A stretch of 64,000 nt of DNA from an uncultured Planctomycetota bacterium (GTDB lineage: Bacteria; Planctomycetota; Planctomycetia; Isosphaerales; Isosphaeraceae). Location of the stretch: contig CAWGMQ010000004.1 of the NCBI GenBank assembly GCA_963823665.1, forward strand, positions 2,144,001 through 2,208,000. The letters are read 5' to 3'. Shown here one piece after another: positions 1-25,209 of this stretch; the stretch's first letter is position 1; the number at the start of each line of letters is the position of its first letter. Position numbers and translations under genes: made by a program. The notes under the pieces are model-generated. The model did not search any database. It was not told the origin of the DNA and saw only the letters and a list, made by a program, of their open reading frames with translations.

Positions 1-2
1 GC

Positions 3-2687
3 AAGTACAGCGCCGAGGTCTCGCTCGAGGACTATCGCGAGGGGCTGAAGTCCGACGGGGCTTTGGCGACGCTCAATGCCGATGCCGCCGAGTTGACCGA
101 GGCCGACCTGAGGCGGGTGCACGACCCCGCCGTGGCGGCGACGATCGGCGAACAGTGGGCGTCATTGCGAGACGAGTCGGCCCGGCTGCTGCTACAGGTT
201 GCAAGTCTTTTTTCGGAATCGACCGCGGTGCCGATCGTGCGACTCGGCCTGCTGGCGGGTTTCAGTGACGAGGCGCGGCCGGGACGGCGCTCGCCGCTGC
301 GCCGTACGGCGCAGCGGCTCGATGACGCGTGTCTGATTGAGCGGTTGGAAGGGGACCAACTTCGGCTGCATCCGTTGATACGTGAGTTTGCTCGCGGTCA
401 GATGTCTGCGGACCAGATCGACCAATTCGTGTGCGCATGCCTGGCTCGCGTGGCCACGGCAATTGAAGAGTGTAAGACGCTCGAAGCGCTGTATGCGGAG
501 CGTGGGGTGGACTCTCTCCAGGAAGATCTGATCGCTTTCCTCGAATTGTGTAAGGTATCGGCTTCGGATCTCTTAGCCCGGCTCCAGATCGTTTTACGGC
601 TCATGCAGCAGGAGGCTCACAACCTTCGTGGTGGCCAAGCAAAAACCAGCCCGACGTATTTTGCTCAACAGGTCCGGAACCGGGCGGTGCTTTTGAGCAT
701 CGCCCCTCTTCGCGGAAGTGCAGAAGCACGACTCGCCGCGCTCGCCGAGCCGCACTTTGCATTGCAATGGACGGCGAGCCGTGAATCGCGAGATTTGATC
801 CGTACACTGACCGGCCACGGAGACTGGGTCAGCGCAGTGGCGGTGAGCCGCGACTCCCGTCACGCCTTCTCTGGTTCTGGAGACCGCACGCTGAGGTTGT
901 GGAATCTGCGAACGGGTCAACTCCTGCGCACATTCACGGGACACGAGCATACCGTGAAGGCTGTGGCGGTGAGCCCAGATGGCCGACAAGTTCTATCAGG
1001 TTCGCACGACTGCACGCTGAGACTTTGGGATGTGGAAACCGGTGGTCTTCTCAACACTTTCACAGGCCACGCGGGCATGGTGTTCGCGCTGGCGATGAGC
1101 CCCGACGGTCAACAGGCCGTCTCAGGCTCGCGCGATTGCACGCTCAGGCTCTGGGACCTGCAGACTGGCCAGCTCTTGCGCACCTGCGTGGGCCATGAAG
1201 ACGGGGTATGCGCGGTTGCGATTTGCCCAGACGGACGCCGTGCCTTTTCCGGTTCGCGCGATCGCACAGTGAGGCTGTGGGACCTTCAGACGGGTCGGCT
1301 CCTCCGTACCCTCACGGGCCATGACGATATGGTCTTCGCCGTGGCGGTTAGCCCCGATAGCCGGCACGGCCTCTCGGGCTCCGAGGATCGCACACTGAGG
1401 CTTTGGGACCTGCAAACCGGCCAGCTCCTTCGCACATTCGCTGGCCACGAAGGCGGAATAAATGCAGTGGCGATGAGCGCTGACGGCCGCCACGGCCTCT
1501 CGGGCTCCGAGGACCGCACACTGAGGCTTTGGGACCTACAAACCGGGCGGTTCCTTCGCACATTCGCCGGCCATGAGCATGGGGTGGGTGCAGTGGCGAT
1601 CGCTCCTGACGGGCGACATGTTCTCTCGGGGTCTGATGACCGCACCGTCAAGCTCTGGGATCTCGTGGCCGGCCACTCTCCACCGATCACCAATGGACAC
1701 GCCAGCGCTGTGAGCGTGGTGGCGATGAATCTGAATACTCGCCAGGCTCTCTCCGGCTCGCGCGATTGCACGCTTCGACTCTGGGACATGCGAACCGGCC
1801 TGCTCGTGCATTCGTTCAGCGGGCACGAGAGCGAAGTGAATGTAGTGACGATCTCGCCTGACGGACGTCATGCCCTATCCGGCTCCTACGACCGCACCCT
1901 CAAGCTCTGGGATCTGCGGACTGGCCAACTCGTCCGCACATTCGCAAGCCGCGAGGGTTCGTATGGTGTGATAGCGGCAAGCCCCGACGAACGCGATGCT
2001 CGCTCCGGTTCCCTGCACCACACCCTGAATTTTTGGGACCGTCGATACGGACGGTTAATGCGGACAATTCACCGCACGCTAAAGCTATCGGCGCTTCGGG
2101 CACTGCAACAATGGGTCCTCTTATTGAACCATTCGCAGTGGGTAAATGCCGTGGCTACAACTTCCAACGGCCGCTGCGCCCTCACGGGTGCGCAGGACGG
2201 CACACTCAAACTCTGGGATTTGCGGACCGGTTATCTCATTCGCTCTTTCGTCGGCCACACGAATGCTATTGCTACGGTGGTGGCGGCATCCGATGACCAC
2301 TTTCCTCCTTCTGGCTCCGAGGGCCACACGAATGCTATTGCCACGGTGGTGGTGGCATCCGATGACCACTTTGCTCTTTCTGGCTCCGAGGACCACACGC
2401 TCCGGCTCTGGGACCTCGTGACCGGCCAGCTCCTGCACACCTTTACTGGGCACACGGGCCCGGTGAGCGCTGTCGCGCTAACCTCGGACGGGCGTCATGC
2501 GGTTTCAGGCGCGCGCGACCGCACGCTTCGGCTCTGGGATCTAGAAATGCGAGTCTGCCGAGCCATTGTACCGCTTGAAGGTGCGCCTGCGTCGGTCGCG
2601 CTCGGGTCCGACGGCCAAACCATAGTCGTCGGTGATAGAATTGGGAATGTGCATTGCTTCCATATCTTGAGTCTTGGCGAGGGCTGA
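3..2687 (+). CDS. STAND/NB-ARC (APAF-1-like) WD40-repeat protein, 5'-truncated by the window edge
   Basis: The frame is open from base 3. It has a winged-helix-like LHPLIREFAR segment, a helical region (QQEAHNLR...FAQQVRNRA) and about 14 GH...WD repeats. The NTPase itself is not in the window, so the STAND call is inferred. Confidence 0.75.
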   Translation, partial: KYSAEVSLEDYREGLKSDGALATLNADAAELTEADLRRVHDPAVAATIGEQWASLRDESARLLLQVASLFSESTAVPIVRLGLLAGFSDEARPGRRSPLRRTAQRLDDACLIERLEGDQLRLHPLIREFARGQMSADQIDQFVCACLARVATAIEECKTLEALYAERGVDSLQEDLIAFLELCKVSASDLLARLQIVLRLMQQEAHNLRGGQAKTSPTYFAQQVRNRAVLLSIAPLRGSAEARLAALAEPHFALQWTASRESRDLIRTLTGHGDWVSAVAVSRDSRHAFSGSGDRTLRLWNLRTGQLLRTFTGHEHTVKAVAVSPDGRQVLSGSHDCTLRLWDVETGGLLNTFTGHAGMVFALAMSPDGQQAVSGSRDCTLRLWDLQTGQLLRTCVGHEDGVCAVAICPDGRRAFSGSRDRTVRLWDLQTGRLLRTLTGHDDMVFAVAVSPDSRHGLSGSEDRTLRLWDLQTGQLLRTFAGHEGGINAVAMSADGRHGLSGSEDRTLRLWDLQTGRFLRTFAGHEHGVGAVAIAPDGRHVLSGSDDRTVKLWDLVAGHSPPITNGHASAVSVVAMNLNTRQALSGSRDCTLRLWDMRTGLLVHSFSGHESEVNVVTISPDGRHALSGSYDRTLKLWDLRTGQLVRTFASREGSYGVIAASPDERDARSGSLHHTLNFWDRRYGRLMRTIHRTLKLSALRALQQWVLLLNHSQWVNAVATTSNGRCALTGAQDGTLKLWDLRTGYLIRSFVGHTNAIATVVAASDDHFPPSGSEGHTNAIATVVVASDDHFALSGSEDHTLRLWDLVTGQLLHTFTGHTGPVSAVALTSDGRHAVSGARDRTLRLWDLEMRVCRAIVPLEGAPASVALGSDGQTIVVGDRIGNVHCFHILSLGEG
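2253..2390 (+). repeat. 69-bp in-frame tandem duplication inside a WD40 blade
   Basis: ggccacacgaatgctattgc...tctggctccgag occurs at 2253 and 2322, giving GHTNAIATVVxASDDHF twice. Confidence 0.9.
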
Positions 2688-2690
2688 TCG

Positions 2691-5600
2691 ATGGAGGCTG
2701 CAACGGGCGAACGCGCCGGGGCAGCGGTCTTGATCGGGATCGGCGACTATTTGCTTGGAAAGCAGGTCTGGCCGCTGCGTTATGCTCGCGCGATGCAGAG
2801 GCGATGGCGGCTGTCCTCTCCGATCCCGATGTCTGCGGATTTCCTGCGCACAAGGTCAAGCTCCTCACCGATCAATCGGCCTCCCGCGACACGGTTGCCC
2901 ACCACCTTTCGAAGTGGCTACCCGAGCAAGCTCGCGGGGCAGAAATTGCGGTCATCTACTTTGCTGGCCACGGGATGATTCACCGGATCGGGCAGCGGGA
3001 GGAGGGCTATCTGCTCCCCTACGATGCCGATCCCGACGATCTGGAGACGCATGGCGTGCTCATGACCGATCTGGCCCGGTGGATCGAGGCGATTGATGCC
3101 GGGACGGTTATCGTCTGCCTTGACTGCTGTCATGCGGCAAAGGTCCTTCCGCGCGGGGTAGCTTCGGCACCGGCGACTGGGCGCAATATGCGGATCAGGC
3201 CGGCAATGCTCCAAGAATTGACGGGCCGAGGACGATACTTGATCGCGTCGTGCGACGATGGCCAGGTCTCACTCGAGTCGGACACGTGGGGGCATGGGCT
3301 TTTTACCTATCATCTTCTCGACGGCATCGGAGGCGCGGGCGATCGAGACGGTGATGGACGGATCGGCGTCGCCGAACTGTTCGAGCACGTGGCCGAGGCG
3401 GTGGAACGTGATTCCCGCGCGCTCGGGACGATCCAGAAGCCGTGGAGCTGCTCAATTGGATCTGGCGGCGTCTATCTGTCCGCTCCGCGTCGGAAGGGCG
3501 ATGCAGGGCGATCAAAACCCGCTCGGGCAATGTCTGTTACCGCCGCCGAGCGTCTATGCCGCGAGCAGGGTGCAGCGGCCACCATCGGCGAAATTGAGCG
3601 AACAATTGACTGGGCGGATGTCGGCCAGCTCGGGCTGATTGTTGACCTGCTGAGAGTGATTGAACACCCGGCGGCGATTCCTCTGCTATTCCGATGTCTG
3701 GCGCACGCGCGGGAGGAAGTCCGCACTCGGGCCAAGACGGTCGTGCGTACGATCGGCTGGGAGAAGGTGGCGGCTTTCATCGAAGTTCTCGCTCGGTGTG
3801 GCGACGACGAACAGTTTGGTGCGGTGCTCGATGGATTGGCCGCGTTCGAGGCTCACCGCGAGATCGTCACGTTGCTCGACCGGCTGGTGACCATGCTCAA
3901 AGGCGACCAGCGTAACCGGACAATCTTTCTGCTGGAGCGGAAGCACCAGTCCCTGGACCTCGAGCGCATAACGGAATTGTTTCGCGAGTCGCAAAGCCCT
4001 TACCAGATCCAGAAGGTTTTGGGCCAGGGGCTTTGTACGGCGGCTTACCTTGCGCGCGACGAGTCCAGCGAACTCGAGGTCGTGGTCCGCGTACTTCGCC
4101 CCGAACTGGCGAGCTCGCCGCAGATTCGGGCGCAGTTTCTGGACCTCTCGCGGCGGTCGCTCAAGCTCGTTCATGAGAACTTGGTTCTGACCCGGGAGGT
4201 CAAGGCTTATTCCGACCGACACATCTACTTCGCGGTGCGGGACTTTGTGGATGGAGTCACACTCCAGAAGCTGCTTGAATCGGGCCGCGCCTTCTCTCCG
4301 GATCAGATCATCAAGATTCTCCGGCAGGTTCTCCGAGCGCTCGTGCCGCTGCATGCCAAGGGGATTTTGCATGGGTCGATCAAGCCGTCCAACCTCTTTC
4401 TGTGCGGTGAGGATCGGGTGATCCTGGGGGATCTCGCCTTGCCGTTGCGTGGGTTTAGCGTGCAGCTCGACCGACTGTCGTACGATTACCGCTATGCGCC
4501 TCCGGAGATGTTTCGCGAGGACGGCGCACTCGGCCCCTGGTCAGACTTTTACGCCGTGGGCTGCGTGGGGTACGAGCTGGCGTGCGGAGCACCTCCGTTC
4601 GTATCTGACAATTATATCGAGCTGGCCGGGCGGCACGTCGGCGAGACAGCCGGCCCGCCCAGCGGGCGCGGTAGCAGGCTGGGCGCGGCCGGCGATGCCG
4701 TGCTCCTTCGTTTTCTGGCCAAGTCAACATCGGATCGACCGCAGATCCTGGGTGAGGCCCTTGAGTCCATCGACGAGCTGCATTCCGCTCTGTTCCCGAG
4801 GATGCAACCGAAATCTCCACCGGCACCGATTTTGGCGGACGCATCGCTGATTCGATATGTGACTGATGATGCTTTGTCTCTGGTTTCCTTCGCGTTTGAC
4901 GCGAGATCGGTTGAGGACACTACCACAAGCCGAATCACAGGAGTGACCGCGACGGGGACGGAACACACCCTTGCATTCGCGATTGATCCCGATGAGGAGA
5001 AATTAGCGCATCGATTCAAGGCAGACGGTTCTCGGATCGGAAGATACACAATCATCAAGGAGATCGGCAGAGGAGGTCTGGGAGCGGTGTATCTTGCGCA
5101 TGACGAACGTCTCCAACGGAACGTGGCCATCAAAGTCGTCGCTCGGGCGTACCACAGTGATTCCAGTTGGCGGAGTCGGTTCGAACGCGAAGCCACGCTG
5201 ATGGCCCGACTTGATCACCCGAGCATCGTCAGAATTCTTGACATGGGTGAGGAGGATGGCTCGTTTTACACCGTTCTCGAGCTCGTCTCGGGTGGGGACC
5301 TTGGGCACCAACTTCGGGATCGAGCCTGGCTGCCGGAGGAGGCAGCTCGGCTTATGGCAACGCTGGCGCGGGCAGTGGACAGTGTGCATTCTCATGGCGT
5401 CATCCATCGCGACCTGAAGCCTTCCAATATTTTGTTTGATATATCCGGAACGCCCAAGATCACCGACTTCGGTCTGGCCAAGCTGATCGGCGAACAGCAA
5501 GAGGATGCTGCGGAAACGACGGAAGGGATGGTCATGGGAACGCTAGCGTACATGTCGCCGGAGCAAGCCAGTGGAGAGATCGGCAGAATTGGTCCGGCAA

Positions 5601-5947
5601 CCGATATCCACGCTCTGGGAGTGATCCTCTATGAGCTGCTCGCCGGCCGTAGGCCATTCAAGAGTGGCACATCCTCGGAAATGCTGATGCAAGTGCGGGA
5701 ATACAAGCCCGAGCCACCGAGTCGGTGGCGTTCCGAAGTACCGCGCGACCTGGACGCGATCTGCCTCAAGTGCCTCGACAAAGAACCGGAACGACGATAC
5801 TCCACCGCGGCGGCCCTGGCCGACGATCTCGAGCGATTCATCGACGGGCAACCGATCATGGCGGGGCCACGTCCTGTTTGGGAGCGTCTGCTCCGTTCGT
5901 TCTGGCCCAGGAAGTCGCCGGGAGGCCAGGCTCGCCCTGAGAAATGA
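2691..5947 (+). CDS. Caspase (peptidase C14) - helical/HEAT-like region - pseudokinase - Ser/Thr kinase fusion; 1-nt frameshift near 2790
   Basis: The caspase N-terminus AVLIGIGDY...PLRYA (ORF 2691) continues as RDAEAMAAVL in the 2654 frame. Catalytic motifs YFAGHG and LDCCHA are present. Kinase 1 is degenerate (VVVRVL, HGSIKPSN, GDLAL). Kinase 2 is canonical (GRGGLG, VAIK, HRDLKPSN, DFG, YMSPE). Confidence 0.9.
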
Positions 5948-6228: not shown

Positions 6229-6630
6229 ATGCGCATCGCTCATGTCACAACGGATGAAGTCAATCAGGCACTGGCAGTTCACGCAGCGAAGTCACTTGGT
6301 GCCGACGTTACCCCGCTCGCTCCAGAGGACGTCGCAACCCGAATGCTGTTCGACGCGGTTCTCTACGATCTCGACCGCGTGTCGCCGAGCCGGCGACAGA
6401 CACTGCTCGCTGAGATTCGCTCGGAAAAGACTGGAGTCCCGATCGCCGTTTACGGCTATTGCCTCTCGGAGGATCAGGCGGGCAAGCTCCGATTCCACGG
6501 CGTCGCCGTGGCGCAACGGCTTCATGCCACGCTGATCCGAACCCTGGTGAATGCGGTCCGTCAGAACCTCGCCGCCGTGCCACCGGACGACGCGATCACG
6601 GACTTGACCTGGGTCAATGTCAACGCGTAA
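6229..6630 (+). CDS. Small atypical receiver-like protein
   Basis: AAGGAG RBS before ATG 6229. The alternating beta/alpha pattern with FDAVLYDLD and VPIAVYG resembles a CheY-like fold. Confidence 0.55.
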   Translation: MRIAHVTTDEVNQALAVHAAKSLGADVTPLAPEDVATRMLFDAVLYDLDRVSPSRRQTLLAEIRSEKTGVPIAVYGYCLSEDQAGKLRFHGVAVAQRLHATLIRTLVNAVRQNLAAVPPDDAITDLTWVNVNA

Positions 6631-7986: not shown

Positions 7987-8079
7987 ATGATCGGCAATAC
8001 GGTTGGCCACTACCGCATCACCGCCAGGCTGGTCGCGGGCGGGATGGGGGAGGTGTTCCTGGCGGAAGACACACGGCTC
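7987..8079 (+). pseudogene. N-terminal stub of a Ser/Thr kinase
   Basis: MIGNTVGHYRITARLVAGGMGEVFLAEDTRL corresponds to kinase subdomain I; similarity stops abruptly after it. Confidence 0.8.
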
Positions 8080-8813
8080 ACTTCGTCGGCGAACACTTCG
8101 GACTCGTCCCCGAGGCGACCGACCTGTCGATGGTCGCCCTCCAGAACCAGGTGGCTGCCCGATTCTGTGAAAACAAGCCGCTCCAGCGCCTGATCTGGAT
8201 TCCCAAAGGACTGCAACCCCGGGATGAGCGCCAGAGCTCGTTCATCCGTCAACTCGAGTCCGATCCCCGCTCCGTCATGGGGGCCGAGTCGATCGCCGAT
8301 ACGCTGGAGAACCTCAAGGTGCTGATGCAGACCCGGTGAGAGCGCGAGCAGGCCGAGCGCGACAAGCCGCCACCAAATCCTTCAACCGGCGGCGCACCCC
8401 GCGTGTACCTGATTTGCGATCAGAATGACGAGGCGGCTCTCGAGCCGCTCGAAGACTTCTTCTATGACCAGGGGATCGAAGTCAGCTTGCCGGGTTTCGA
8501 GGCGGAAGAACCCGAAGTCCAGCAGATCCACATCCAGAACCTCCGCGATTGTGACGCCGCCTTGATTTACTACGGATCCACCGGCATGCATTGGGTGGAC
8601 TTCAAGATTCGGGACCTGCAAAAAGCGGCCGGCTATCGGGATTCCCGACCCATTCCGGTGAGCGCGGTCTACGTCGCGCCGCCGTTCAACCACCGCAAGG
8701 AACGCTTCAAGAGCGTGTCGACCGAAGTGGTACGGCAGCCTGATGACAAGTTTGGGCCGGAATTGCTGACGGGCTTTGTCGCGGCCATTCGGAAAGTAAA
8801 GAATAAAGAATGA
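8079..8813 (+). pseudogene. 3' remnant of a TIR-like/DUF4062-like protein with an internal TGA at 8337
   Basis: One frame from 8079 (HFVGEHFGLVPE...) joins ORFs 8130 and 8403. VYLICDQND...NLRDCDAALIYYGSTGMHWV fits a TIR-like flavodoxin pattern. Confidence 0.65.
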
Positions 8814-8882
8814 AACGGGAAGCGAATTAGGTTCTGTTCGAGCTACAATCACAAGTCGAGCTGAAGGAGAGGAGGACGAGCC

Positions 8883-9176
8883 ATGCAAATCGCTGTCGTA
8901 ATTGAACCGGTGGCGGGAAACGGGTATCGGGCGCGGGGAGATTTACTCGGTCTCAGCGCCGAGGGCCCGACGCGGGAGGCTGCTCTGGAAAGTCTCCGCC
9001 ACCAGCTCCAGGATCGGCTTCGTGAGGGAACGGAAATCGTCGCGCTGGAAGTTGCTCCGCCGAACCCTTGGATGGAGTTCGCCGGTATGTTCAAAGGCAG
9101 CTCCATGTTTGAAGACGTGCAGCGGATTATGGCTGAGAATCGCCAACGGGACGAGGCCGATCCAGACTACCCATGA
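8883..9176 (+). CDS. HicB-like antitoxin
   Basis: Strong GAGGAGG RBS. The segment VVIEP..NGYRA...[15 protein letters not shown] is HicB-like. It overlaps the downstream PIN remnant at ATGA. Confidence 0.75.
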
Positions 9177-9343
9177 ACGCGCATCTGCTGGATACCCAGC
9201 TCAAGAAGATGAAGCTGAACGTCGGCAAGACAGACCTCCGCATCGCCGCCATCGCCCTTGAGGCGGGTGCAATCGTTGTCACTCGAAATCTTCGTGACTT
9301 CGGTCGCGTGCCCAATCTGCAGCTCGAGGACTGGAGCAAATGA
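9173..9343 (+). pseudogene. vapC: Internally deleted VapC/PIN toxin (56 aa; absent from the ORF track)
   Basis: The N-terminal PIN motif MNAHLLDT is joined directly to the C-terminal motifs [39 protein letters not shown]. Confidence 0.85.
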
Positions 9344-9399
9344 ACTCAATGGGCATGCAGGTTCCCAATCCGTTTCCCGGCTTAAGACCGTTTCGCAGC
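9340..9399 (+). pseudogene. Duplicated 5' stub of the STAND gene at 10292
   Basis: [20 protein letters not shown] matches [20 protein letters not shown]; both contain cccaatccgtttcccggc. Confidence 0.8.
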
Positions 9400-9525
9400 C
9401 CTCGACCTTGCCCGCGAGACAGTGAGCTGTTGACCCTGCCGGCGCAGACGACGCAGGTTGCGATCGGATATGGTGAAGAGCGATACGCTCGAGAAGCCGA
9501 CGCGAGGAAGGGCGAGATCGGCCCG

Positions 9526-9873
9526 ATGCCGCCAAACGAATAGTGTCCTCACTGTGGGACCATGGTGGAGGACTGGCACTTTGAGTGGTGTCCCGATGGC
9601 GCTGCTTTGTTGTTTTATCGTGGGAAAGCTGTGACTGATTGCCCCGTGTGTTTGACGCCGGTCTCCTACCAGGGCGGCACCTTTTCGGTTCCAACCGTAG
9701 CCGGTCTACCGCTGCTACGGAGGCAGGCGACCAAGGCAGCCCAGTGGAGGAAGAACAACGGAATAACTCTGGAGAAATACATCCAGGGCTGGTCAGCAGG
9801 TCAGCAGTACCTGAGCTATTTTAGCCAGGGCGCGATACAGCAAGCTGACCGCCACGCACAAGGAGCCCCATAA
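9526..9873 (+). pseudogene. Small Zn-ribbon protein (CPHC...CPVC) with an in-frame TAG at 9541
   Basis: ATG 9526 reads MPPNE*CPHCGT in frame into ORF 9562, restoring the first CxxC pair. Confidence 0.6.
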
Positions 9874-10175
9874 TGCCTCTGACCGATGCCGAGCTTGCAT
9901 TCCTGGACGCCTACGTTCACGAGCTGTATTCGGCCCCCATGACGGGACCGCACAGTCGGGCATTGCGGGAGTTGGGAGCCAGTCAGTGGGATCTGTCCTG
10001 GCTACTTACGGCCTGGCACCGGAGAGTCCTGGGCGATGGCAAAAGTCCGCTCGGTTCTGTGCACTCAGAGCCGGTGCCTCTGCCGTGGTCATCCAAGGAC
10101 GTCCTCCTCTCCAGAGGACGGCAGCTACGTGAGGAACTAGAGCGTGAGGAGCCGGCTCGGGCGGTTGCTGGCTGA
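9873..10175 (+). CDS. Hypothetical 100-aa protein coupled to the Zn-ribbon gene
   Basis: TAATG stop/start overlap and a protein-like helical sequence (MPLTDAELAFLDAYVHE). Confidence 0.65.
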   Translation: MPLTDAELAFLDAYVHELYSAPMTGPHSRALRELGASQWDLSWLLTAWHRRVLGDGKSPLGSVHSEPVPLPWSSKDVLLSRGRQLREELEREEPARAVAG

Positions 10176-10291
10176 TACGCCGACTTTGTCCTCCAACACG
10201 TCGGGTGGCGCCGAGGCGAGCGGCCCCTGCTGTGCGAGTACGCGACCGCGATCTCGAGGTCTTGGCGGTTCGCTAACGAAGAAAGAGAGCG

Positions 10292-13200
10292 ATGAGGGCA
10301 ATGGACCTCCAGCGGCCCAATCCGTTTCCCGGCCTTCGCCCATTCCGCAGCGACGAACACCACCTCTTCTTTGGCCGCGAGGAGCAGACTGCCGCTTTGC
10401 TCCAACTGCTGCGAACGAACCGCTTTCTCGCAGTGGTCGGCACCTCGGGCAGCGGTAAGTCGTCGCTGGTACGAGCCGGCATGATCGCCGAGCTTCACGG
10501 CGGCACCATGACCCAGGCCGGCTCGACCTGGGAGGTGATGATTCTTCGGCCCGGCGGCAGCCCCATCGAGAACCTGGCGCGAGCGTTCATCGAGGCCGAT
10601 CTCTACGATCGGGAAGACCCCAGCACCCTGCCTCGGTTGCTCGCCACGCTCAACCGCAGCCGCTTCGGCCTGGTCGAAGCGATGAAACAGTGCGAGCTAT
10701 TTGAACCGGGCACCAACCTGCTGGTCGTGGTCGATCAGTTCGAGGAGTTGTTCCGCTTCCGGCAACAAGGCGTGGATTCCGAGGAAACAGCCGCCGCGTT
10801 CGTGAACCTGCTCTTGACCGCGGGCAAGCAGGCGGAATGCCCGATCTACGCCACCATCACGATGCGTTCCGACTACCTGGGCGATTGTTCGGAGATTCCC
10901 GGCCTGGCCGAAGCGGTGAACGAAGGCGAGTACCTGATCCCCCGGCTGCTGCGCGATCAGAAGCGGGACGCGATCGAGAAGCCGATTGGCGTCGGCGGGG
11001 CCAAGATCTCGCCCATGCTGGTGCAGCGACTTTTGAACGAAGTGGGCGACGATCCCGATCAACTGCCGGTGTTGCAGCACGCGCTCATGCGGATGTGGGA
11101 TGCCTGGTCCCAGGGCTGCGACCACGATCGGCCGATCGACTTCGCTGACTTCGAGGGGACTGGCGGCCTGAGCGAGGCGCTCTCGAACCACGCCGACGAA
11201 ATATACGACGCGCTTCCTCACGACCGCCATCGGTCGGCCTGCGAGAAGATCTTCAAGACGCTCACTATGAAGGGTGACGACAACCGCGGCATCCGCCGGC
11301 CAACGCGGCTGGCGCAACTCCAGGCGATTGCTGGCGCGGATCGTGAGACGGTGACGACGGTGCTGGACGCCTATCGCGGGTCTGGCGTCACGTTTCTGAT
11401 GCCCGGGTCGGAAGTCGAACTGATCGACCGGACGGTGCTGGACCTGTCGCATGAGAGCCTGATGTGCGGCTGGCAGCGGTTGCGCATGTGGGTGGAAGAC
11501 GAGGCGCAATCGGCGCGGATCTTCCGGCGATTGCTGGACACGGCCCGGCTCCGGAGCGATGGGAAAGCCGGTCTGTTCCGCGATCCCGACTTGCAGATTG
11601 CGCTCTCCTGGCGCGAGCAGGAAGCACCGAACACGGAATGGGCCGAGCAGTACGGCGGCGATGTCGAGACGGCGATCGGCTTTCTGGAAGCGAGCAACGC
11701 CGAGACGGAAGCGGAACGGCATGCCAGGGAAGCCGCCCGGGGGCGCGAGCTGGATCAGGCCCGGCAACTGGCCGAAGCGCAGCGACTGCGGCTGGAGCAG
11801 CAGCAGCGCGCGGCGTACCGGCTTCGCCTGATGATTGCGGGCCTCGCCGCGGTCGCGCTCATCGCGGGCGTCGCCTGCGTCGTCGCGCTGTTTGCCAACC
11901 AGCGAGCCATCACGCTGGCGGTCGCGGCCCGGCAAAACGAGGAGAAGGCCAACCAGAACGCGCAACGAGCGGAGCGATCTCAGAAGGAGACGGCAGACGC
12001 TCTGCAGTTGGCGCGAGCCGCCGAGGAGGCGGGCCGCAAGCTGCTTTACACGACCGATATGCAACTCGCCCCCTTCGTCTGGCGCGACGATCGCACCACG
12101 GCCGAACGACTCCGCGTGCTGCTGGCGAAACACATTCCGGAGAGCAAGGCAGCCGGGAACGAGGATGTCACCCGCGCCAGCCTCAAGCCCGATCTGCGCG
12201 GCTTTGAGTGGTACTACTACCAGCACTTGCTGGAAAACAGCGCCGCGGTTTTCTCGGGGCACGGCGAGTCCGTCGTCGACGCTGCGTTCACAACGGAAGG
12301 CCCGCTGGTCACGCTGGATCAGAATGCCCAGGTGCGGCGGTGGGACGTCGGTTCGCAGCACGAAGATGACGCGAGCCGCCGCGACCTGCCCGGCGGGCCC
12401 GGCGCTCAATTCCGCGTTCTGTCGCCCGACGGCCGGCTGGCGGCGCTGGCCGAAGGGAACAAGGTTCGCGTCTATGACACCTCCACGGGCCATGAGAAGT
12501 TCGCGGTCGATTCGGCCAGCCCTCAAGACTTCGTGAGCCGCTATATCCGCCATCTGATCTTTTCACGGGACGGCGACAGGTTGGTCATCGTCGACGACAA
12601 GATCCGGTGGTTGAGCGCCGCAAGCGGCGAGGTGATCGCAACTTTTGACGAGAAACGTCCCCGCGTCGAATGTGTCGCCTTGTCGGCGGATGGGCTCACG
12701 CTGGCCGTCGGCGGCTACGGTAACGTCGGCGACCTGGCTTCCATCTTTCGCCTCGACGCGGCCGCAAAGACCGTGACTCCCCCGGCGACGGGCGTTGGCG
12801 TCCCCCCTGAAACGCTGTCCTGCTCCGCGCTCACAGTGAATGGCGGGCGGCTCGCTGTCGGCGCGATGATGTCGGGAAACCTGGCAGTTTTGGAGGCAAC
12901 TTCAGGCCGTTTGATTGGACGGCATACGTCCGCTCACGCGTCGTCCATCCGGGCGATAGCCTTCTCTGGCGACGGCGCCAGGCTGGCCACGGCCGACGCC
13001 GAAGGGACGATCAAGATCTGGGCCGATCTCGAGAAGCTAGACTCCAAGAGCGCGGCGCTCTTGACGCTCAAGGGCCATCAAGGGGCCATCCACACAGTCC
13101 GTTTCTCGACCGATGGCAAGCGGCTCGTCACCTCAAGCGCCGGCAAGACAGCCAGAGTCTGGGATCTCGAGAATGCCGGCGCGGCCATTCGGCCATTGGA

Positions 13201-16200
13201 AGGTCTTGCCGACGATGGGTCGCTCGATGGGACGCCCGTGACCCGCTTTTCGCCGGATGGCCAACTGATCGCCGCGGCCAACGGCCGCAGTGTGCGTCTG
13301 TGGGACGCCGCCACGGGGCGACTCGTCAAGGAACTGTCACACGGCGAGAAGGTTCGAGTCTCCAGCGTTGCATTCTCGCCGAGCGACAACCGTCTCCTGG
13401 CTGTCGGGTACGGCGGACCATCGGACGTGTCTTATGTTGCGCTGTGGGACATCGATGCCGCAGCGGAGCGGGCGCGGTTGACGGGAGCGACCGATCTGCC
13501 CGACTATTATCACACGGGCGAATATCAGTGGCAGATCGGTGCGCTCGAGTTTTCGCCCGATGGGAAGTATCTGGTTGCCGGATTCGGCTCAAAGCGCGGC
13601 ATTAATCCAAGAGCTGATCCCCGTCCGCTGAAAGTGTGGGAAGTCGCCACGCGCCGACTGATCCGCCGGCTTGATGGGCATGCGAACACATGTCTCTCTC
13701 TCGACTTCTCGCGGGACGGGACGCTCTTGGCCAGCGGCAGCCACGACGGGACGGCGATCATCTGGTCGACCAAGACGTGGAAGGCGATGCACACTCTCCA
13801 GAATCCCGATAACAGCTACCTTCCGGGCGGATGGATCACGGTCGAGGATGTGGCCTTTTCGCCGGACGGCAAGACCCTGGTCCTGGCGAGTTATGGCGGG
13901 ACCGTGCAGTTATGGGACGTCGCCACCGGGAAACTTCTGGAGACACTCAAGGGGCATTCCAGTGCCGTCATGGCCGTGGTGTTTTCGCCGGATGGCCGCA
14001 CCTTGGCCTCGGGCAGCAGCGACCAGACGGTCCGCCTCTGGAATGTCGAGACGCGGCGTGAGCTCTTGCAGTTAGATCACGGCGGCGTCGACCTGGGCCT
14101 GCAGATGCTATCACTCGCGTTTTCCCCAGAAGGCCGACAGTTGCTGACCGGATGGCGGGGAGTGCGCCGCCTTCTGGTCTAGCATGCCAATCGTCTGGAA
14201 CGATCCCGACCGGGCCGCCGAAACACTGCGACTCTTGCTCCATTCCCACGCCGACTTCCCGAGCCGCATCCGGATGTTCTCCGAAAACCTGAGGCTGCAC
14301 GAAGCACTGGCCAAGCTCGACGCGAACGACGAGCGCGTGCAAGCCGCCCTGGCCGCCACCGGAGCCAACTGGCATGCCTCGCGCAAGGCGTGGCCGGAGG
14401 CCGTGGCGGCCTTTGATCGGTTGGCGGCCGCCGATCCAAGAGGACCCGAGGCCTGGCTGCGCACGCCCGGGCTGCTTCGCCTGGCGACGGCCCTGGTGCA
14501 TCAAAATCGGTCATCCGTCGCGGCCACGCTGTTGCAAGGAGGCGCCGGGCGCCGCACCGCGGATGGGATCGCTGTGATCGAGCTGACCAGGGAGGGAATC
14601 GTCAGCGATCCGGCGACTGGAGAACTCTTGGGTCCCCTTCGGGCACTTGTCAATGAACGGCTCGCCAAGAAGCCGCGAGACGCCGGGCTGCTCGAACTCC
14701 GCGCCGAACTTGCCGGTCAATGGTCGGACGCCCAGGCCCAAGTGGCCGACTACACCGCCGCCATCGACGCGCTTGCCCCGCAGAAACCTGAGGTCGCCGC
14801 CGTCGATCTGAAGAGGCTCTATCGTCGCCGGGGCAACGCCTACGCCAGCCTGAAAAAATGGCCGGAAACCCTCGACGATTACGCCCACGTCGTGACCGAC
14901 ACCCCCCAGACGACCGACGCCGACCTGCTCTTGAACCGGGCCCGCGCCTATGAGGCGCTCAAGAACTGGGATGCCGCCGCGGCCGACTGGTCACGGGCGG
15001 CGAGTGGAAACCCGGACGGGGCCAAACTGCTCGGCGAGTTCGCGCGGCGACTTGTCGCCGCCGATCAACTCCCGCTGGCGAAGGCTCAGTTCCAGAAGTC
15101 CGAAGCACTTTACGCCCGATCGCTGCGGGAGGACCCTGAGAACGACATGGTCGCCAGGGCGCTGGCTCAACTCCTCTTCGATAAGGAAGAAAATGAGACC
15201 CGCACTCGATGGACGGTACTCAAGCCGAGCGAGATGAAATCGAAAGGCGGCGCAACGCTCTCGAAGCTTCCCGACGAATCCATCCTGGCCAGCGGCAAGA
15301 ACCCGCTCGGGGATGCCTATACGATTGTTGCCCCGACCCAGGTGACTCAGGTCAGGGCCATCCGACTCGAGGCCCTGACTCACGAGTCGCTCCCGAATCA
15401 GGGGCCAGGTCGTTCCGAACAGAACCGCGGCAATATCGACATGGTCAACTTCAAGATCACGGCCCACATTCCAGGGACGCAGCCTCGTCCGATCGAAGTC
15501 AGCCGGGTCGCCGCCGACTATTCCTACTTCGAACTGACAGCAACTCACTGGAATCTCGGGGAAGGCGAAGGGCGTTCGCACACCGCGGTCTATCTGGCCA
15601 GGCAGCCAGTCGACTGCAAAGACGGCACGCGGCTGGAGTTCCAGATGGAGTTTTACCCCGGTGCGGATTGGCCGCTCCAGAACCTGGGTCGCTTCCGGCT
15701 TGCGGTGGCCGGTGATCCTGCTGCGTTTGACGGGGAGCAGACACGCTTCGCTGCAATGAAGCTCAAGGACCCGTGGGCCAAGCTCGCCGTCGCATACGCC
15801 TTGAACGGTCGCAATGATGAGGCGACGCGATACTTTACCCGAGCACTCGATGGTCCGAGGGTCGCGAGGCGAGGCAGCCGATCCTCGAGTTCGCAGCGCA
15901 CTTCGGCGATCTCCTTCCCGCGCTGATCGAACGACAGATCGAACGACAGCCTGATGAACCGCAACTCCAGTTGGCCCTGGCTCGGAGCCTTGCCAGGCGG
16001 GGTAAGCAGCACCTGGCCGAGAAGCAGCCTGCGAAGGCCCAGGCGGCGCTGGAGAAATCCCGCGAGATTGTCGCGCGGCTCCGCGCAAAATACCCGGAAC
16101 CGGTATGGACCGTGCTGAAGCCGACCGAACTGAAGTCGGAGCGAGGACAAACGCTCACGCTGCAGGGCGACGGTTCGATACGGGCGAGTGGAACGAATCC

Positions 16201-17678
16201 GGATCGGGACACCTACACCCTGACCGCCCCGGTTGCCGGGGGAACCGTCGCCGGACTCCGGCTCGAAACGATCCCGGATGAACGGCTGAAGGGGGATGCC
16301 AGTCGCTGGTGGGGCGAGTTTTTCTTGACGCAAATTGACTTGGCCACACTTGCTGCGAGCGGTGGTACGGATCGCCCGCTGGCGATCAAGGATGGAGTCG
16401 CCGACTTTTCCCGGGACCAACACCCCTTGTCGCGCATTCGACCAGAATGATTCGACCTCCTGGGGCGTTTACCCGAGACACGACGAACCACACACCGCAA
16501 TTTTCGAGTGTGCATCTTCGTCGGCCGCCACAGCAGGAAACCAGCGGTTGAAGGTCCGACTCCGGTCGGGCTCCGTCACCTGGCCCGGGCGGAATCTCGG
16601 CCGCTTTCGTCTCTCCGTGACGAGTCATGCCCGAGACCTCACGGTGGGGGCCCGCCTGCGCAACGATTTGAAGGATAGCGAGATCGCGGACCTGCACGTC
16701 GAGCTGGCGAGGGCTCATGCCGAGCAAGGTCACGAGAGCGAAGCATTGGCCTCGTTGGTCGAGGCGCTCCCTCTCGCCGCGGACCGCGCCGGCAAAGCCA
16801 GGATCATCACCGAAGCCGCACCACTGGCAGGGGAGCTGGAAAAACTGGCCGAGGGCGCGAAAGACGATGCCCTGTTCCAGGCCGAACTGGCCCAGCATTT
16901 TGCCGCTCGAGGCAATGCCGTGGCTGCTAACGCCGCCCGCGCGAGGGCCTGCGCATTGTTCGCGGAGAAGCTGGCGCAGGAACCTGAGAACACCGCGCTC
17001 GCCGCGGACCTCCTCTTGGCCTACCAGTCGGCCGGCCGCACGCGCGAGGCGGTTCCGTATCTGGCGAAGACGTTCGCCGCAGTTCCGAGCGACATGTTGC
17101 TCCAGCAGGTTGCCGCTCTCCAGGCGTGGTTCGGACAGGAGAAGGAACTCGCGGCCACCCGGCAGCGGATACTCGCGTTCGCCAAGGACACGAGCGATGC
17201 AGGTACGGCCGAACGGGCGGCCAAGGCGTGCAGTATCCGGCTGTCCACCGACAAGGCGGAGCTTGACGCGGCACTGGCATTCGCTCGCAAGGGGGTGGAA
17301 CTCGATCACGGTAGCGAGTGGCGGGAGTGGCCGCTGCTGTCGCTCGGCATGGCGGAGTACCGCAGCGGCAACCACGCGGCCGCCACCCAGGCGCTGCTCG
17401 CCGCCGCAAAAGCTGGCTCGAACAATCCCATCGTCACGGGCATTTCCGCATTCTACCGGGCGATGAGCCTGTCTCGGCAAGGAAAGCCCGACGAGGCCCG
17501 CAAACTCGCAATCGGGGCCACTGCGCAGATGAAGCCCCTGCCGAAAGACGAGCAGAATCCGTTTGCCAATGGTGCCTACTACGACGACCTGATCCTGTGG
17601 CTGGCCTACAAGGAAGCAAAAGACTTAATCAAGTTCGACGCGCCGCCGCCGCCCGAGCCGGAGAAGGACAAGAAATGA
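10292..17678 (+). CDS. Giant nSTAND1-type NTPase - TM - WD40 - TPR - two beta-sandwich domains - TPR protein; frameshifts near 14160, 15860 and 16440
   Basis: Motifs NPFPGLRPF, Walker [10 protein letters not shown], Walker [16 protein letters not shown] and [11 protein letters not shown] helix ([23 protein letters not shown]) and WD40 repeats follow. ORFs 14184, 15971 and 16335 continue colinearly with the downstream paralogue. Confidence 0.85.
17417..17561 (+). repeat. 145-bp perfect direct repeat, copy 1
   Basis: ctcgaacaatccc...gagcagaatccg is identical to 23695-23839. Confidence 0.9.
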
Positions 17679-17757
17679 AGCCGGCCCGGGACCGGATCGA
17701 TGCAGTAACAAAGGACGTGTTCCAGGGTATGCCGGGCGGCATCGAGGAGATCTGGAG

Positions 17758-20700
17758 ATGAGCGACAGCAACCCGTCCGCCGCGGACCCGCCGGGGCCAT
17801 CCGCCGCTCGCGAAAGGTCCAGCAAGATCCCGGACAAGCCGCCGGCCGACCTGAGCCCGACCATTGATTCCGAATCGAGTGCAGCGACGCCAAGCTGTGA
17901 CGTTACCACCGAGGGCACGTTTCCTTCATCGGTCGTCGATGGGCGCACGAAGTCTTACCTGACGGGCATGGCCACCGGGCCGACGGACGCGGAGCCGGGG
18001 GGTGCGGCCGTGGTGGTGTCGGTGGCGGGCTACGAGATCGAGAGCGTTCTTGGCCGCGGCGGCATGGGTGTCGTCTACAAGGCGCGGCATCTGGCCCTGA
18101 AGCGCACCGTGGCCCTGAAGATGGTGCTGGCCGGCGGGCACGCCGGACCGCGAGTTGGTGCGGTTCCGCATCGAGGTCGAAGCGGCGGCGCGGTTGCAGC
18201 ACCCCAACATCGTGCAAATCTTCGAGGTCGGCGAGGCCGGCGGGCATCCGTACTGCGCGCTGGAGCTTGTCGAGGGGGGCAGCCTCGCCGCCCAGCTCGC
18301 TGGCCAGCCGCTGCCGGCCCGGCAGGCGGCCCGGCTGGTGGAAGCCCTGGCGCGGGCGGTGCAACTGGCCCACAGCCGCAACGTCGTCCACCGCGACTTG
18401 AAGCCCGCCAATGTGCTGCTGACGCCGGACGGCACACCAAAGATCACCGACTTCGGCCTGGCCCGGCAACTGGACAGCGACAGCGGCGAGACGCAGGCCG
18501 GGCAGGTGATGGGCACGCCGTCGTACATGGCCCCCGAACAGGCGTCGGGATGCGCCTACGAGGCCGGGCCGGCGGCGGACGTGTACGCGCTGGGGGCGAT
18601 CCTGTACAAGTGCCTGGCGGGGCGGCCGCCGTTCAAGGGCCAGACGGTGGTGGAGACCCTCGACCAGGTGCGGACACAGGAGCCGGTGCCGCCGTGCGCC
18701 TTCAGCCGAGTGTGCCCCTGGACCTGGAGACCATTTGCCTGAAGTGCCTGCGCAAGGAGCCGGAGAAGCGCTATGCGTCGGCCGCGGAGTTGGCGGACGA
18801 CTTGGTTCGGTATCAGCGCGGCGAGCCGATCCAGGCGCGGCCGGTGGGAAAGCTGGAATGGGCCTGGCGCTGGTGCCGCCGCAACCCGCTGCCGACGAGT
18901 CTGCTGGCGGGGATGGTGCTGGTGTTTCTGACGGGCTTTGCCGGGGTGGTCTGGCAGTGGCGCGTGGCCGAAACGGCGCAAAAGGAGACGTCAAACGCTC
19001 TTGCCGTCGTCGAATCCCAGAAGAAAGACGTGGAGGGAAGCTTGGCCAAGGCCGAGGAGGAGGCGGGCCGCAAGCTGCTGTATACGACCGATATGCAACT
19101 CGCCCCATTCCTTTGGCGCGACGATCGAACCACGGCCGAGCAACTTCGCGTTCTCCTGGCAAAACACATTCCCGATAGCAAGGCCGCCGGGGACAAGGAC
19201 GCCGTAGCAGCCGTTGCCAGACCCGATCTGCGCGGCTTTGAGTGGCACTATTACCAGCACTTGCTGGAACACAGCGCTACGGTTTTCTCGGGCATGGTGT
19301 TGCCCTCGCCGGCGGTGCTGTCACCTCGGCTGGTCAATTGGTGACGCTGGATCAGAACGGCCAGGTGAGGCGTTGAGACCTGGCTTCCCAGCATGAAGAC
19401 GCAAGGAGCCGCCGCGACCTGCCCGGCGGCCAAGGTGCTCAGTTTCGCGCCTTGTCGCCCAACGGACGGCTGGTCGCGCTGGGCGACGGCAACAAGGTGT
19501 ACGTATTTGACACCTCCACGGGCAAAGAGACGTTCCAGATCGAATCCGTCAATCAGAAAATCGTCAATCCGGAATATCCCCGTCTGATCTTCTCACGGGA
19601 TAGCGACCGGTCGGTCATAGTGGATGACAAGATTCGCTGGTTGAGCGCCGTAAATGGTCAGGTGATTGCGTCCGTCAATCAGAAATTCGACCACCTCTCG
19701 AGCTTGGCGTTGTCCGCCGATGGTCTGACGCTGGCCGTCGTCGGCCACGGTCACGGCTTGGGCCACTTTTCGATGTTCCGCCTGGACGCGACCAGGCGAA
19801 CCGTGACTCCGGGGGCAAAGGATGTCCAAGGCAGTGCAACATTGAACGCCTTGGCGTTGAGTCCGGATGGCCAACGGCTCGCGCTCGGCTATAGCCTGTC
19901 TGCTGGGCTGTCGGTTTACGACAAATCCACTGGACGCTTGATCGCAGAGAATCGGTCGGCTCACGCCTCGCCCCTCACCGCGATCTCCTTCTCCGGCGAC
20001 GGCGCGAGGCTGGCCACGGCGGATTCCCAGGGGACGATCAAGATCTGGGCGGACTGCGCAGAAGCTCACTGCGGTGCTGCTGACGAAGAAGGGTCATCAA
20101 GGGGCGATCAATGGCGTCGCTTTCTCGAGCGATGGGAGGCGGCTCGTCAGTGCGAGCGTGGACAAAACGGCCAGAGTCTGGGACCTGGAGAATGCCGGTG
20201 CGGCAATCCGGCCCTTGGAACGTGCCGACGGTCGGTGTCTCGTGGCACGTTTTTCCCGCAATGGCCAGTTGATCGCCAGCGCCGTGGGCAACAGCCTGCG
20301 GCTCTGGGACGCCGCCACGGGCCAACTGGTGCGGGAGCTGTCGGCCGGCGACGAGGGTCGTATAGAAAGCGTGGCATTCTCGCCTGCCGACGACCGCCTG
20401 TTGGCCGTCGGGTACGGCGTACCACAACAGAGCGGGCGAACAGACATTTCTTATGTCGCGCTCCGGGACATCGATGCCGCGACGGAACTCGTGCGCTTGC
20501 CCGGAGCGACCGATCTGCCCGGCCCCGTGGTGAGCGAATTCTGGGGGGCAGTCGCGGCGCTCGCGTTTTCGCCTGACGGGAAGTATCTCGCGGCCGGTTT
20601 CGGCACAAAGATGTGTTTTTGGCATGAAAGTTATCCGGTTCCTCTGAAGGTCTGGGAAGTCGCCACGCGCCGGCTGATCGGCCGTCTGAATGGACACACG

Positions 20701-23700: not shown

Positions 23701-23956
23701 CAATCCCATCGTCACGGGCATTTCCGCATTCTACCGGGCGATGAGCCTGTCTCGGCAAGGAAAGCCCGACGAGGCCCGCAAACTCGCAATCGGGGCCACT
23801 GCGCAGATGAAGCCCCTGCCGAAAGACGAGCAGAATCCGCTTGCCAACGGTGCCGACCACGACGACCTGATCCTGTGGCTGGCCTATAAGGAAGCGAAGG
23901 CGATGATCCATTTCGATGCGACCGCCGCCGCGCCCGCAACAGCCGGCGGGAAATGA
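17758..23956 (+). pseudogene. Giant Ser/Thr kinase - TM - WD40 - TPR - beta-sandwich - TPR gene with about 7 frameshifts and TGA stops at 19374 and 20794
   Basis: Kinase motifs [21 protein letters not shown] and YMAPE lie across ORFs 17758/18155. A TM helix follows, then ORFs 19452, 20074, 20854, 22555 and 22784 match the 10292 gene. Some lesions may be sequencing errors. Confidence 0.8.
23695..23839 (+). repeat. 145-bp perfect direct repeat, copy 2
   Basis: Identical to 17417-17561. Confidence 0.9.
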
Positions 23957-24982
23957 CCGCGTGACTGCGATCCGATTCGCGCCTGCCCTTCACACGGTCA
24001 TCACCGTCTCCCGAGGAAATGACCCACGTCCGGGAGATGCACACAACCTTGGGCAGATGGCCGTCGTCCGAGAGAAGTTCCAGGGGCTCGAACCCCCTGG
24101 CAATTGACCTGCGCTTCATTGGAGCGGGTTGTGGCCAAGGCGTGGCCGACAGAAGTCTCGATCCTATAGCACTTGCGGCCGATTTAAGCGGCGAGTGTAC
24201 CGACAGGAGTGTCGGCTGCACGGCGCCCGCGCCGCGCGCGCATACAGAATGAATTTTCTTCCGTACTCGATCTGATCGGTGGAACCCGGAAACTTTCTGG
24301 AAATTTCCCGGTCAACAACGCCACGAATCCGTAAAGTCGTCGCATATTACACGTGAGGACGTGCACCGCGTGAGGCGTTTTGCACCGGGCGGCAGGAAAT
24401 CCAGGCCAATGCCCTGGGCCCTTTTGTTTTGGCCTTTCAGGCCGATCATCAATGGCCGAATCGCGAAAGTGGGCCCATAATATACATAGCTCAGTCTCGA
24501 TCGCTGACACCGGAGTCGGCGCGAGGCATCACACCACCCATGTCTCTGGAACCGGGAATGACTGCTTCGTTTGCTCGAGCGCGTGCTCGAGGATCTCAGC
24601 TCTGCCTGACCACGCCTGTGCCGTGGGAAGAACGGGGCGGGACCGCGCTCGGGAACTGGGCTCGGTGCACGACGAAATCGCCCCGAGTTTTGAGCTGTGC
24701 CGAGCGTGGGACGGGTCTGGACCACGGTGAGGGTGAGTTTTCACCCGTTGGGCCGAGGGATCAAGGAGCGGGACTAATGGCGTTATCCTCTTTGGTTCTC
24801 AGGATTTCCGTGCTGCTTCAGGGTGTTCCGGCCAGCCATCGGACGGGGCTCAAGAAAGCAAGCAAAATGAGACTTTTTCAGGGTCAAGAGTCCCATTCAA
24901 CGGGTCGAGCCGCGTACGGCCCCCTCACGGCCCGTGAACTTGGGTCGAGTAAGGTCTGGCTTGGTTTACCTCATTATGTCGA

Positions 24983-25150
24983 CGTTGCCATATGGCGACG
25001 CGCGTCAGTGGCCGTTGGCACGTTGGTGCTCTTAGCCCGACATTTAGCATGGTCCGAGAGGCTTCGACCTTGTCATTGGTGACTTGCCATGCCGGGTTTT
25101 TCCGGCGTGGTATTGATCCCGTTGGGGAGACTATTTCGTTCCCGATACCC
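24983..25150 (+). ncRNA. Candidate IS110 bridge RNA
   Basis: Structured non-coding left end: a 5' hairpin (24983-25000), a nested stem-loop around GCTCTTAGC, and the hairpin TGCCATGCCGG-GTTTTT-CCGGCGTGGTA (25085-25112). Confidence 0.5.
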
Positions 25151-25209
25151 CTCTTGGCTCGCGGCGCCTTGTCGTTTCACCACACCTACCCGCGAAGCGG
25201 AGAGATCCC

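Follow-up and report, generated by a model that had tools for sequence, protein, structure and literature searches.

Does a gene for a WD40 sensor that stops three nucleotides short of a gene for a caspase fused to two kinases form with it a self-contained switch, or are both genes parts of a larger system? The question arises at the start of a 64,000-nucleotide stretch of DNA (the window) from an uncultured Planctomycetota bacterium of the Isosphaeraceae (assembly GCA_963823665.1, contig CAWGMQ010000004.1, positions 2,144,001 to 2,208,000 of the forward strand), where a sequence-only reading had recognised an APAF-1-like sensor coupled to a caspase-pseudokinase-kinase effector in a cytoplasmic two-gene death or defence switch. 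The two genes, here called gene A (the sensor) and gene B (the caspase fusion), stand at the end of a more extensive planctomycete cluster. Five unrelated signalling proteins of that cluster have an Arg-Asp-Met (RDM) tag in a loop; the tag is most likely a protease cut site common to them, through which an immune-receptor-like sensor would be connected with a caspase, protein kinases and a sigma factor. On balance, we lean towards the view that the cluster encodes a modular cytoplasmic proteolytic relay of Isosphaeraceae-type planctomycetes, with one shared cut site and an output through a sigma factor and kinases.

A tripeptide common to proteases and partner proteins

Searched as R-[DN]-[ML], the motif occurs in the cluster of this strain as six RDM and one RNM in about 8,600 amino acids, where 0.45 RDM would be expected, and the fetched loci hold 44 RDM in 48 open reading frames (ORFs) of the module versus 1.9 expected from the background (11 in 598 ORFs); these enrichment statistics are descriptive and ignore kinship, genome size and the post hoc choice of the motif. 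RDM is the only conserved tripeptide common to the caspase, the DUF4384 protein and the short CHAT protease. Coordinates upstream of the window are given on L003 (C4:2130001-2150000) and L004 (C4:2111001-2131000), the window itself beginning at G000:C4:2144001.

In gene B the motif stands as RNM (3182..3190, + strand; family consensus RDM) in the loop that follows the catalytic Cys, where it is a candidate activation cut. In the alignments of this family, which comprise the best 120 of 527 matches, the loop carries the motif in 116/118 homologues and its Arg in 118/118, and the positions upstream of it are at most 42% conserved. Two RDM flank the DUF4384 domain of a zinc-finger (HxxxCxxC)-kinase-DUF4384 protein (L004:14719-16287, - strand); with 119 of 387 matches aligned, the two sites keep the motif in 116/119 and 117/119 and the Arg in 119/119 and 118/119 proteins. 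In gene A, the RDM of the short CHAT sits in a flexible insertion of roughly 35 residues. A second short CHAT, carried on a NACHT-like ATPase with SpoIIE (L003:8573-11374, +), also has RDM and is an 88% identical copy. Among short CHATs at large, the motif is found in 22/24 proteins with the insertion versus 1/106 without it (128 of the 150 listed proteins were assignable).

The remaining carriers are a TssK-like-GAF-DUF7363-CHAT protein with RDM (L003:4921-8271, -) and a TPR-CHAT with both RDM and RDL (L003:220-4809, +). For the former, 87/107 close relatives have the motif (120 of 199 matches, one uncovered), which floats in a length-variable loop, its flanking positions no more than 31% conserved except at +3; for the latter, it is present in 6/6 close copies. 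The motif was found in the post-Cys loop in 0/116 other bacterial caspases (116 of 119 loci were readable, the loci of the metagenome scan mentioned below being reused as a control) and in 0/12 distant DUF7363-CHAT relatives. A complex prediction pairing the caspase domain (P0005) with the DUF4384 domain (P0133) scored 0.00 and is uninformative either way.

Elsewhere in the same genome (G000), three unlinked RDM-bearing CHAT genes lie on C6 (L220 10273-13520, L221 5699-10675 and L222 8307-10118); one encodes a TPR-CHAT, another a short CHAT joined to WD40, and the third has its short CHAT at the C-terminus. At a paralogous locus on C7 (L224 3801-15716), RG.G.KAR is found close to the C-termini of both the tandem TPR-CHATs and a DUF4384-like protein, a second and different code in this genome. 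On C11 (L223 5589-16176), an ECF (extracytoplasmic function)-like sigma factor gene, a zinc-finger-kinase-DUF4384 gene and two TPR-CHAT genes are found; two DUF4384 proteins share PSPKTRKSDDPVLRIR, two CHATs share LRGTPDFDK, and k-mer comparison revealed no motif common to the TPR-CHAT and DUF4384 proteins of this locus. Within the window, one further RDM, probably background, occurs in a kinase-FGE-sulfatase protein (57742-61440, -) encoded beside two Band-7 genes.

Gene B, a caspase fused to a pseudokinase and a kinase

Gene B (2691..5947, +) encodes a caspase (C14), a helical, HEAT-like region, a pseudokinase and a Ser/Thr kinase, and measures about 1085 aa in intact homologues; profile searches match Peptidase_C14 at E 9.8e-12 and a kinase profile over two stretches at E 9.3e-82. 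The family numbers 527 relatives among 8000 candidates, the best 120 being 51-87% identical and the relatives labelled Isosphaeraceae or Planctomycetota, plus one other phylum. Seventeen regions were examined: the locus itself, 14 other full-length gene B loci, G431:C61 and a partial G439, the last two being left out of the 14-locus counts (G439 has the caspase part only, and G431:C61 has a CHAT for the caspase).

The alignments bear out the domain anatomy that had been read from the sequence, from the His/Cys dyad through the helical linker to a degenerate and a canonical kinase. The catalytic His (2969-2971) is kept in 115/115 homologues, and the catalytic Cys (3128-3130), the second Cys of D-C-C-H, in 118/118; we assign this Cys on the assumption that the metacaspase D-x-C-H motif applies. 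Two Asp residues are likewise invariant (114/114 and 118/118) and presumably form the acidic S1 pocket that receives Arg or Lys in metacaspases. With its His-Cys dyad and acidic residues, the domain is an orthocaspase/metacaspase-like C14 protease, for which a sequence search of the PDB returned weak matches alone (a metacaspase at E 0.2).

The linker (3530..3988, approximate, +; about residues 248-400 of the frame that begins at 2789) is all-helical and HEAT-like in the structure model; it has no Pfam match here, HEAT_2 being precomputed for some homologues, and no orthologue of it was found in a phylum sample of 400 other genomes (best E 1.0e-4). The full-length model begins at 2789, without the first strand, and its caspase part is of low confidence (pTM 0.45). 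In the first kinase (3995..4792, approximate, +), Lys is changed to Arg, HRD to HGS and DFG to DLA; the beta-3 Lys is Arg in 117/120 homologues and the HRD Asp is missing in 120/120. By the published criteria (loss of the VAIK-Lys, HRD-Asp or DFG-Asp; 10.1101/2025.01.12.632604), its sequence is that of a pseudokinase. The second kinase (5036..5848, approximate, +) is a canonical, PknB-like Hanks-type kinase that keeps the Lys in 115/115, the HRD-Asp in 114/116 and the DFG-Asp in 113/115 homologues. The highest 19-residue hydropathy is 1.55 in gene B and 1.71 in gene A, with no clear transmembrane segment in either, and the cytoplasmic location read for both proteins still looks right.

At G431:C61 (L205 17749-19998, P0245), the helical-pseudokinase body has a short CHAT where gene B has its caspase, the last kinase being broken in the assembly. 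A metagenome scan was set aside: its patterns were too generic, and all 80 loci kept were other caspases (30-39% identity over the caspase part only). PADLOC matches of the kinases to PD-T4-6 and mad6 are generic kinase matches and were not counted as evidence of defence. Four clustered caspase-domain genes with N-terminal signal-like segments lie at G000:C4 611939-623772, with no RDM in the stretches viewed.

Gene A, a CHAT-NB-ARC-WD40 sensor

Gene A (L003:12617-16687, +; in-window part 1..2687) begins 1.4 kb before the window and encodes 1356 aa in the order short CHAT, NB-ARC, helical region and WD40, which is the tripartite effector-NTPase-repeat layout of STAND proteins. The NTPase that had been expected upstream is there: NB-ARC (PF00931) is matched at E 7.5e-11, over the cut-off, with GMGGIGKT (Walker A), LLVLDN, FTTR and GRLPLAL, which we take to be the Walker A/B, sensor and GxP motifs. 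The N-terminus, on the other hand, is not of the APAF-1 kind: the protein opens with an intact CHAT protease (HFSSHG ... VLNACS, the His/Cys dyad) in place of a CARD or other death-fold adaptor. In a structure model (pLDDT 89), the first 235 aa adopt the CHAT fold and the insertion is unstructured. The nearest solved structure is SAVED-CHAT (8TL0; Z 27.9, root-mean-square deviation (rmsd) 2.2, 198 residues aligned), the next reaching Z 15.2; the short CHAT also matches SAVED-CHAT in phmmer (E 1.3e-13) and in PADLOC (SAVED_CHAT).

The WD40 region (807..2684, +) comprises 14 segments with internal 126-bp repeats about 80% alike, one segment carrying a partial 69-bp duplication at 2253-2399. WD40 diverges faster than NB-ARC (65% versus 83% in L253, for example), a pattern consistent with a diversifying sensor. 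With a profile library dated 2023, residues 1-733 had no Avs match, and the CHAT-NACHT-SpoIIE gene had a weak match to Avs1b (E 4.9e-5). A putative promoter, TTGCGG-N17-TACGAT, lies at L003:12452-12480, and a promoter-like block (TTGC-N-TACGAT) was seen by eye before short-CHAT genes in 13/22 upstream regions; a consensus promoter scanner did not report the gene A promoter. A short ORF that seemed conserved ahead of the CHAT genes was considered and dropped, since its lengths differ and the stretch reads as promoter.

The proposed relay

In the first step of the relay, modelled on STAND biology, a ligand on the WD40 propellers would switch on the NB-ARC, and the clustered CHATs would become active, with the TPR-CHAT and the other CHAT fusions serving as parallel inputs. 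In the second step, suggested by the motif and by SAVED-CHAT/PCaspase, the active CHAT and then the Arg-directed caspase would cut the RDM loops, most likely after the Arg; these cuts would activate the caspase and process the CHATs themselves, as amplification or as shut-off. In the third step, cuts at the two RDM sites of the zinc-finger-kinase-DUF4384 protein may free or remodel its kinase/anti-sigma part and switch the ECF sigma factor, and the pseudokinase-kinase tandem of gene B would pass the state of the protease on to phosphorylation. The relay would end in a change of transcription and phosphorylation, probably in answer to an invader or to stress, in which death is possible and not required. 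As precedents, PCaspase becomes active when SAVED-CHAT cleaves it and goes on to cut a sigma factor and an inhibitor, with a sigma factor and a kinase beside the two (10.1101/2023.06.23.546230), and bacterial caspase-like proteases cut after Arg (10.1101/2024.10.24.620036).

Several observations weigh against such a relay. Since the sites cut by characterised TPR-CHATs (the A-S, L-D and M-K bonds) are non-conserved (PMC11106740), a shared sequence code is not the rule. By the strict pattern, 20/107 DUF7363-CHATs are without the motif; two divergent caspases (G431:C4 and G439) have none either. Neither a gene A-type nor a kinase-DUF4384 gene lies in the fetched flanks of 5/14 gene B loci; a scan of 42 flanking ORFs revealed no CRISPR, cyclase or other family of defence genes; and the gene B copy of this strain may have become a pseudogene. 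Finally, the caspase motif borders conserved sequence (+5 R 83%, +6 P 97%) and the second DUF4384 site is almost invariant; because conserved sequence adjoins it, the motif could be a structural or binding element in the caspase and DUF4384 proteins.

It is conceivable, although in our judgement unlikely, that the network is the same and RDM a docking or pseudosubstrate motif, bound and not cut, that inhibits the proteases or recruits partners; PCi shows that such modules carry inhibitors (10.1101/2023.06.23.546230). The motif lies inside the proteases themselves, near the catalytic residues in sequence, and the DUF4384 sites stand in conserved context. However, an invariant Arg in a variable post-Cys loop, together with an invariant acidic pocket, fits the zymogen processing known from meta- and orthocaspases. 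Autocatalysis and RR specificity are described for MaOC1 (PMC8283722). Alternatively, the CHAT proteases might cut after the Met, between RDM and a following K, with Arg at P3 and Asp at P2. Csx29 does cleave Csx30 at an M-K bond (10.1101/2022.08.17.504292), and most of the DUF4384 and short-CHAT sites have K or R at +3, but it is the Arg that is the most invariant position (118/118, 119/119 and 118/119), Leu takes the place of Met in about a quarter of the caspases and DUF7363-CHATs, and E or V stands at +3 in many, all of which makes a Met cut distinctly improbable.

Arg-directed cutting of a shared site can be carried further, more tentatively, to a caspase-style network independent of CRISPR and second messengers: NLR-like, TPR and other sensors dispersed through the genome may feed one Arg-Asp-Met code, convergent in at least four unrelated contexts, paralogous systems may be insulated by other codes (RG.G.KAR, G000:C7), and the fusion may convert proteolysis to phosphorylation. 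We regard this wider picture as possible and well short of probable.

The gene cluster and its neighbourhoods

Besides the RDM-bearing genes, the cluster contains a GDSL protein (L004:17144-18985, +), an ECF sigma factor (L004:16284-16871, -), a frameshifted kinase-TPR gene (L004:11973-14718, -), a STAS protein (L003:11378-12319, +) and, downstream of gene B, a small receiver-like protein that recurs in these clusters (6229..6630, +). Flanks of mostly 20 kb were taken around the gene B loci (10 kb for L010-L012, shorter at contig ends). The usual partner of gene B is the kinase-DUF4384 gene, within the flanks at 9/14 loci and adjacent at 7/14. A CHAT-NB-ARC-WD40 gene lies within the flanks at 2/14 and adjacent at 0/14. 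Of 121 genomes of the family, 13 have gene B, 11 the short CHAT with the insertion and 17 the kinase-DUF4384, the last being present also in 11/11 short-CHAT genomes and 10/13 gene B genomes, and gene B occurs with the short CHAT in 8 of its 13 genomes; these counts include related, hence non-independent, genomes, many of them incomplete. In the phylum sample of 400 other genomes, weak DUF4384 matches were found in 2/400.

The short CHAT is elsewhere fused to TPR, sigma and DUF7019 domains. The DUF7363-CHAT (query L003 4924-8271) is elsewhere fused to kinases, ECF sigma factors, type VI secretion sheath (ImpC-like) or TssK-like proteins, Hsp70, STAS and FHA. Further along the window, 8013-24000 holds a second STAND-type region, with a small unannotated ORF (8340-8813), an nSTAND1-WD40 gene (10292-14182) and then fragmented TPR and WD40 ORFs; an IS110-family transposase in pieces follows at 25117-26646.

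That gene A stops immediately before gene B (TGA at 2685-2687, ATG at 2691, a gap of 3 nt) is exactly as the sequence-only reading had it. The 24 nt before the gene B ATG match the non-coding leader of the L005 orthologue at 22/24 positions, and the gene A WD40 protein is without its usual last residues and reads into that leader. Because of the leader match and the truncated WD40 end, the gap is taken as a junction: the native leader and ribosome-binding site of gene B (2667..2690, +) would have been joined to the truncated WD40 end at 2666/2667, a putative deletion scar or a misassembly. A TATAAT-like box, seen by eye upstream of several gene B orthologues, is missing here, and the two genes are probably co-transcribed from the gene A promoter.

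These findings bear on the original proposal of a dedicated, apoptosome-like death switch, in which the WD40 STAND protein would directly activate the neighbouring caspase-kinase. Caspase genes beside AP-ATPase genes are known (PMC8195603), the pair is probably co-transcribed here, both genes share a genome in 8/13 cases, and a gene A-type gene lies within the flanks at the 2/14 loci mentioned and 1.2 kb away in the CHAT-swapped G431:C61. However, the pair is adjacent at none of the 14 loci, its closeness here is that of the junction, the regions fetched from G425, G426 and G433 have CHAT-NB-ARC-WD40 genes with the sigma/kinase-DUF4384 core and lack gene B, and no CARD-like adaptor is present. 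We now give this proposal little credence. The fusion family is conserved, and genes of both types turn up again in clusters of this kind, but their pairing is not conserved.

The frameshift in gene B

The ATG frame of gene B and the frame that begins at 2789 differ by one missing base at 2786..2787 (+), where the sequence is one base short of its homologues; 76/120 homologues have exactly 33 residues before this point. No read matched over 2682-2828, short exact matches from three runs falling elsewhere, and a 226-aa cluster mate begins downstream of the break and is uninformative on it. Among three essential genes checked in the assembly, secA is intact, rpoB is split between frames and rpoC passes through an apparent out-of-frame stretch with a stop (both in G000:C3 1630335-1640168). 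Since rpoB and rpoC are broken too, the frameshift is probably an assembly error, and calls of decayed genes in this genome need caution. That the whole cluster is shuffled, partly decayed paralogue debris, the motif a lineage quirk and the caspase of this strain dead, is very improbable. In its favour are the variable gene order, several frameshifts, an IS110 element (at about 25-26.6 kb) and a patchy distribution (13/121 genomes); against it, the catalytic residues and the Arg of the motif stay unchanged in over 100 homologues of 51-87% identity, and breaks of this kind occur in essential genes as well.

Comparison with known systems

Thousands of CHAT and caspase-like proteases in bacterial genomes have unknown substrates; a conserved motif common to proteases and partners points beforehand to the probable cut sites, and a few point mutants would then suffice to test the cascade. 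A literature search, whose scope left out most subscription papers and supplements, found no account of this fusion, cluster or motif.

The closest likeness is to the SAVED-CHAT/PCaspase/PCc-sigma/PCk/PCi system of the Haliangium ochraceum type III-B CRISPR (10.1101/2023.06.23.546230; 8TL0), in which a short CHAT of the same structural subfamily likewise has a C14 caspase, Ser/Thr kinases and a sigma factor for company. Unlike that system, the cluster uses NB-ARC-WD40 or TPR as sensor and not SAVED (no SAVED match was found in its four CHAT proteins, which carry NB-ARC, NACHT, TPR or GAF), fuses its caspase to a pseudokinase and a kinase, and has several CHAT inputs and a shared motif; no Cas, type III CRISPR or CD-NTase/cyclase gene was found among the cluster ORFs scanned, the genome itself not having been searched. 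With Craspase/CASP (Cas7-11, the TPR-CHAT Csx29, Csx30 and RpoE; 10.1101/2022.08.17.504292), it has in common a TPR-CHAT, an ECF sigma factor and a DUF4384 partner, DUF4384 being one of the Csx30 C-terminal types (same source). In contrast to Craspase, the partner is a zinc-finger-kinase-DUF4384 protein, and Craspase sites are non-conserved (PMC11106740); no Cas7-11 or Csx30/Csx31 match was found among the cluster proteins, to which the search was confined.

Like the APAF-1/CED-4 apoptosome, gene A has an NB-ARC and WD40 sensor; unlike it, gene A starts with a CHAT enzyme in place of CARD, and the pocket of the gene B caspase is of the metacaspase type. Gene A thus belongs with the STAND proteins and is no APAF-1; among bacterial STAND systems (Avs), proteases linked to STAND cut latent effectors (10.1101/2025.11.14.688446). 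Planctomycete kinase-associated ECF sigma groups (PMC7826278) resemble the cluster in that the ECF gene directly precedes a Ser/Thr kinase gene; the cluster kinase differs in its anti-sigma-like zinc finger and DUF4384 and in its linked proteases, and the word "caspase" is nowhere in the main text of that paper. Gene B recalls the JAK family, which ranks top in Foldseek, in that a pseudokinase directly precedes an active kinase, but the order alone matches (TM 0.22, rmsd 25) and the domains of gene B are PknB-like. The protease stands in the place of the JAK FERM-SH2; gene B thereby presents, in a bacterium, a tandem of pseudokinase and kinase joined to a protease. By analogy, the cluster would work like the SAVED-CHAT/PCaspase and CASP modules without being, for want of SAVED, a member of the former; if true, the relay extends the initiator-to-executioner logic of SAVED-CHAT/PCaspase to NLR-type sensors.

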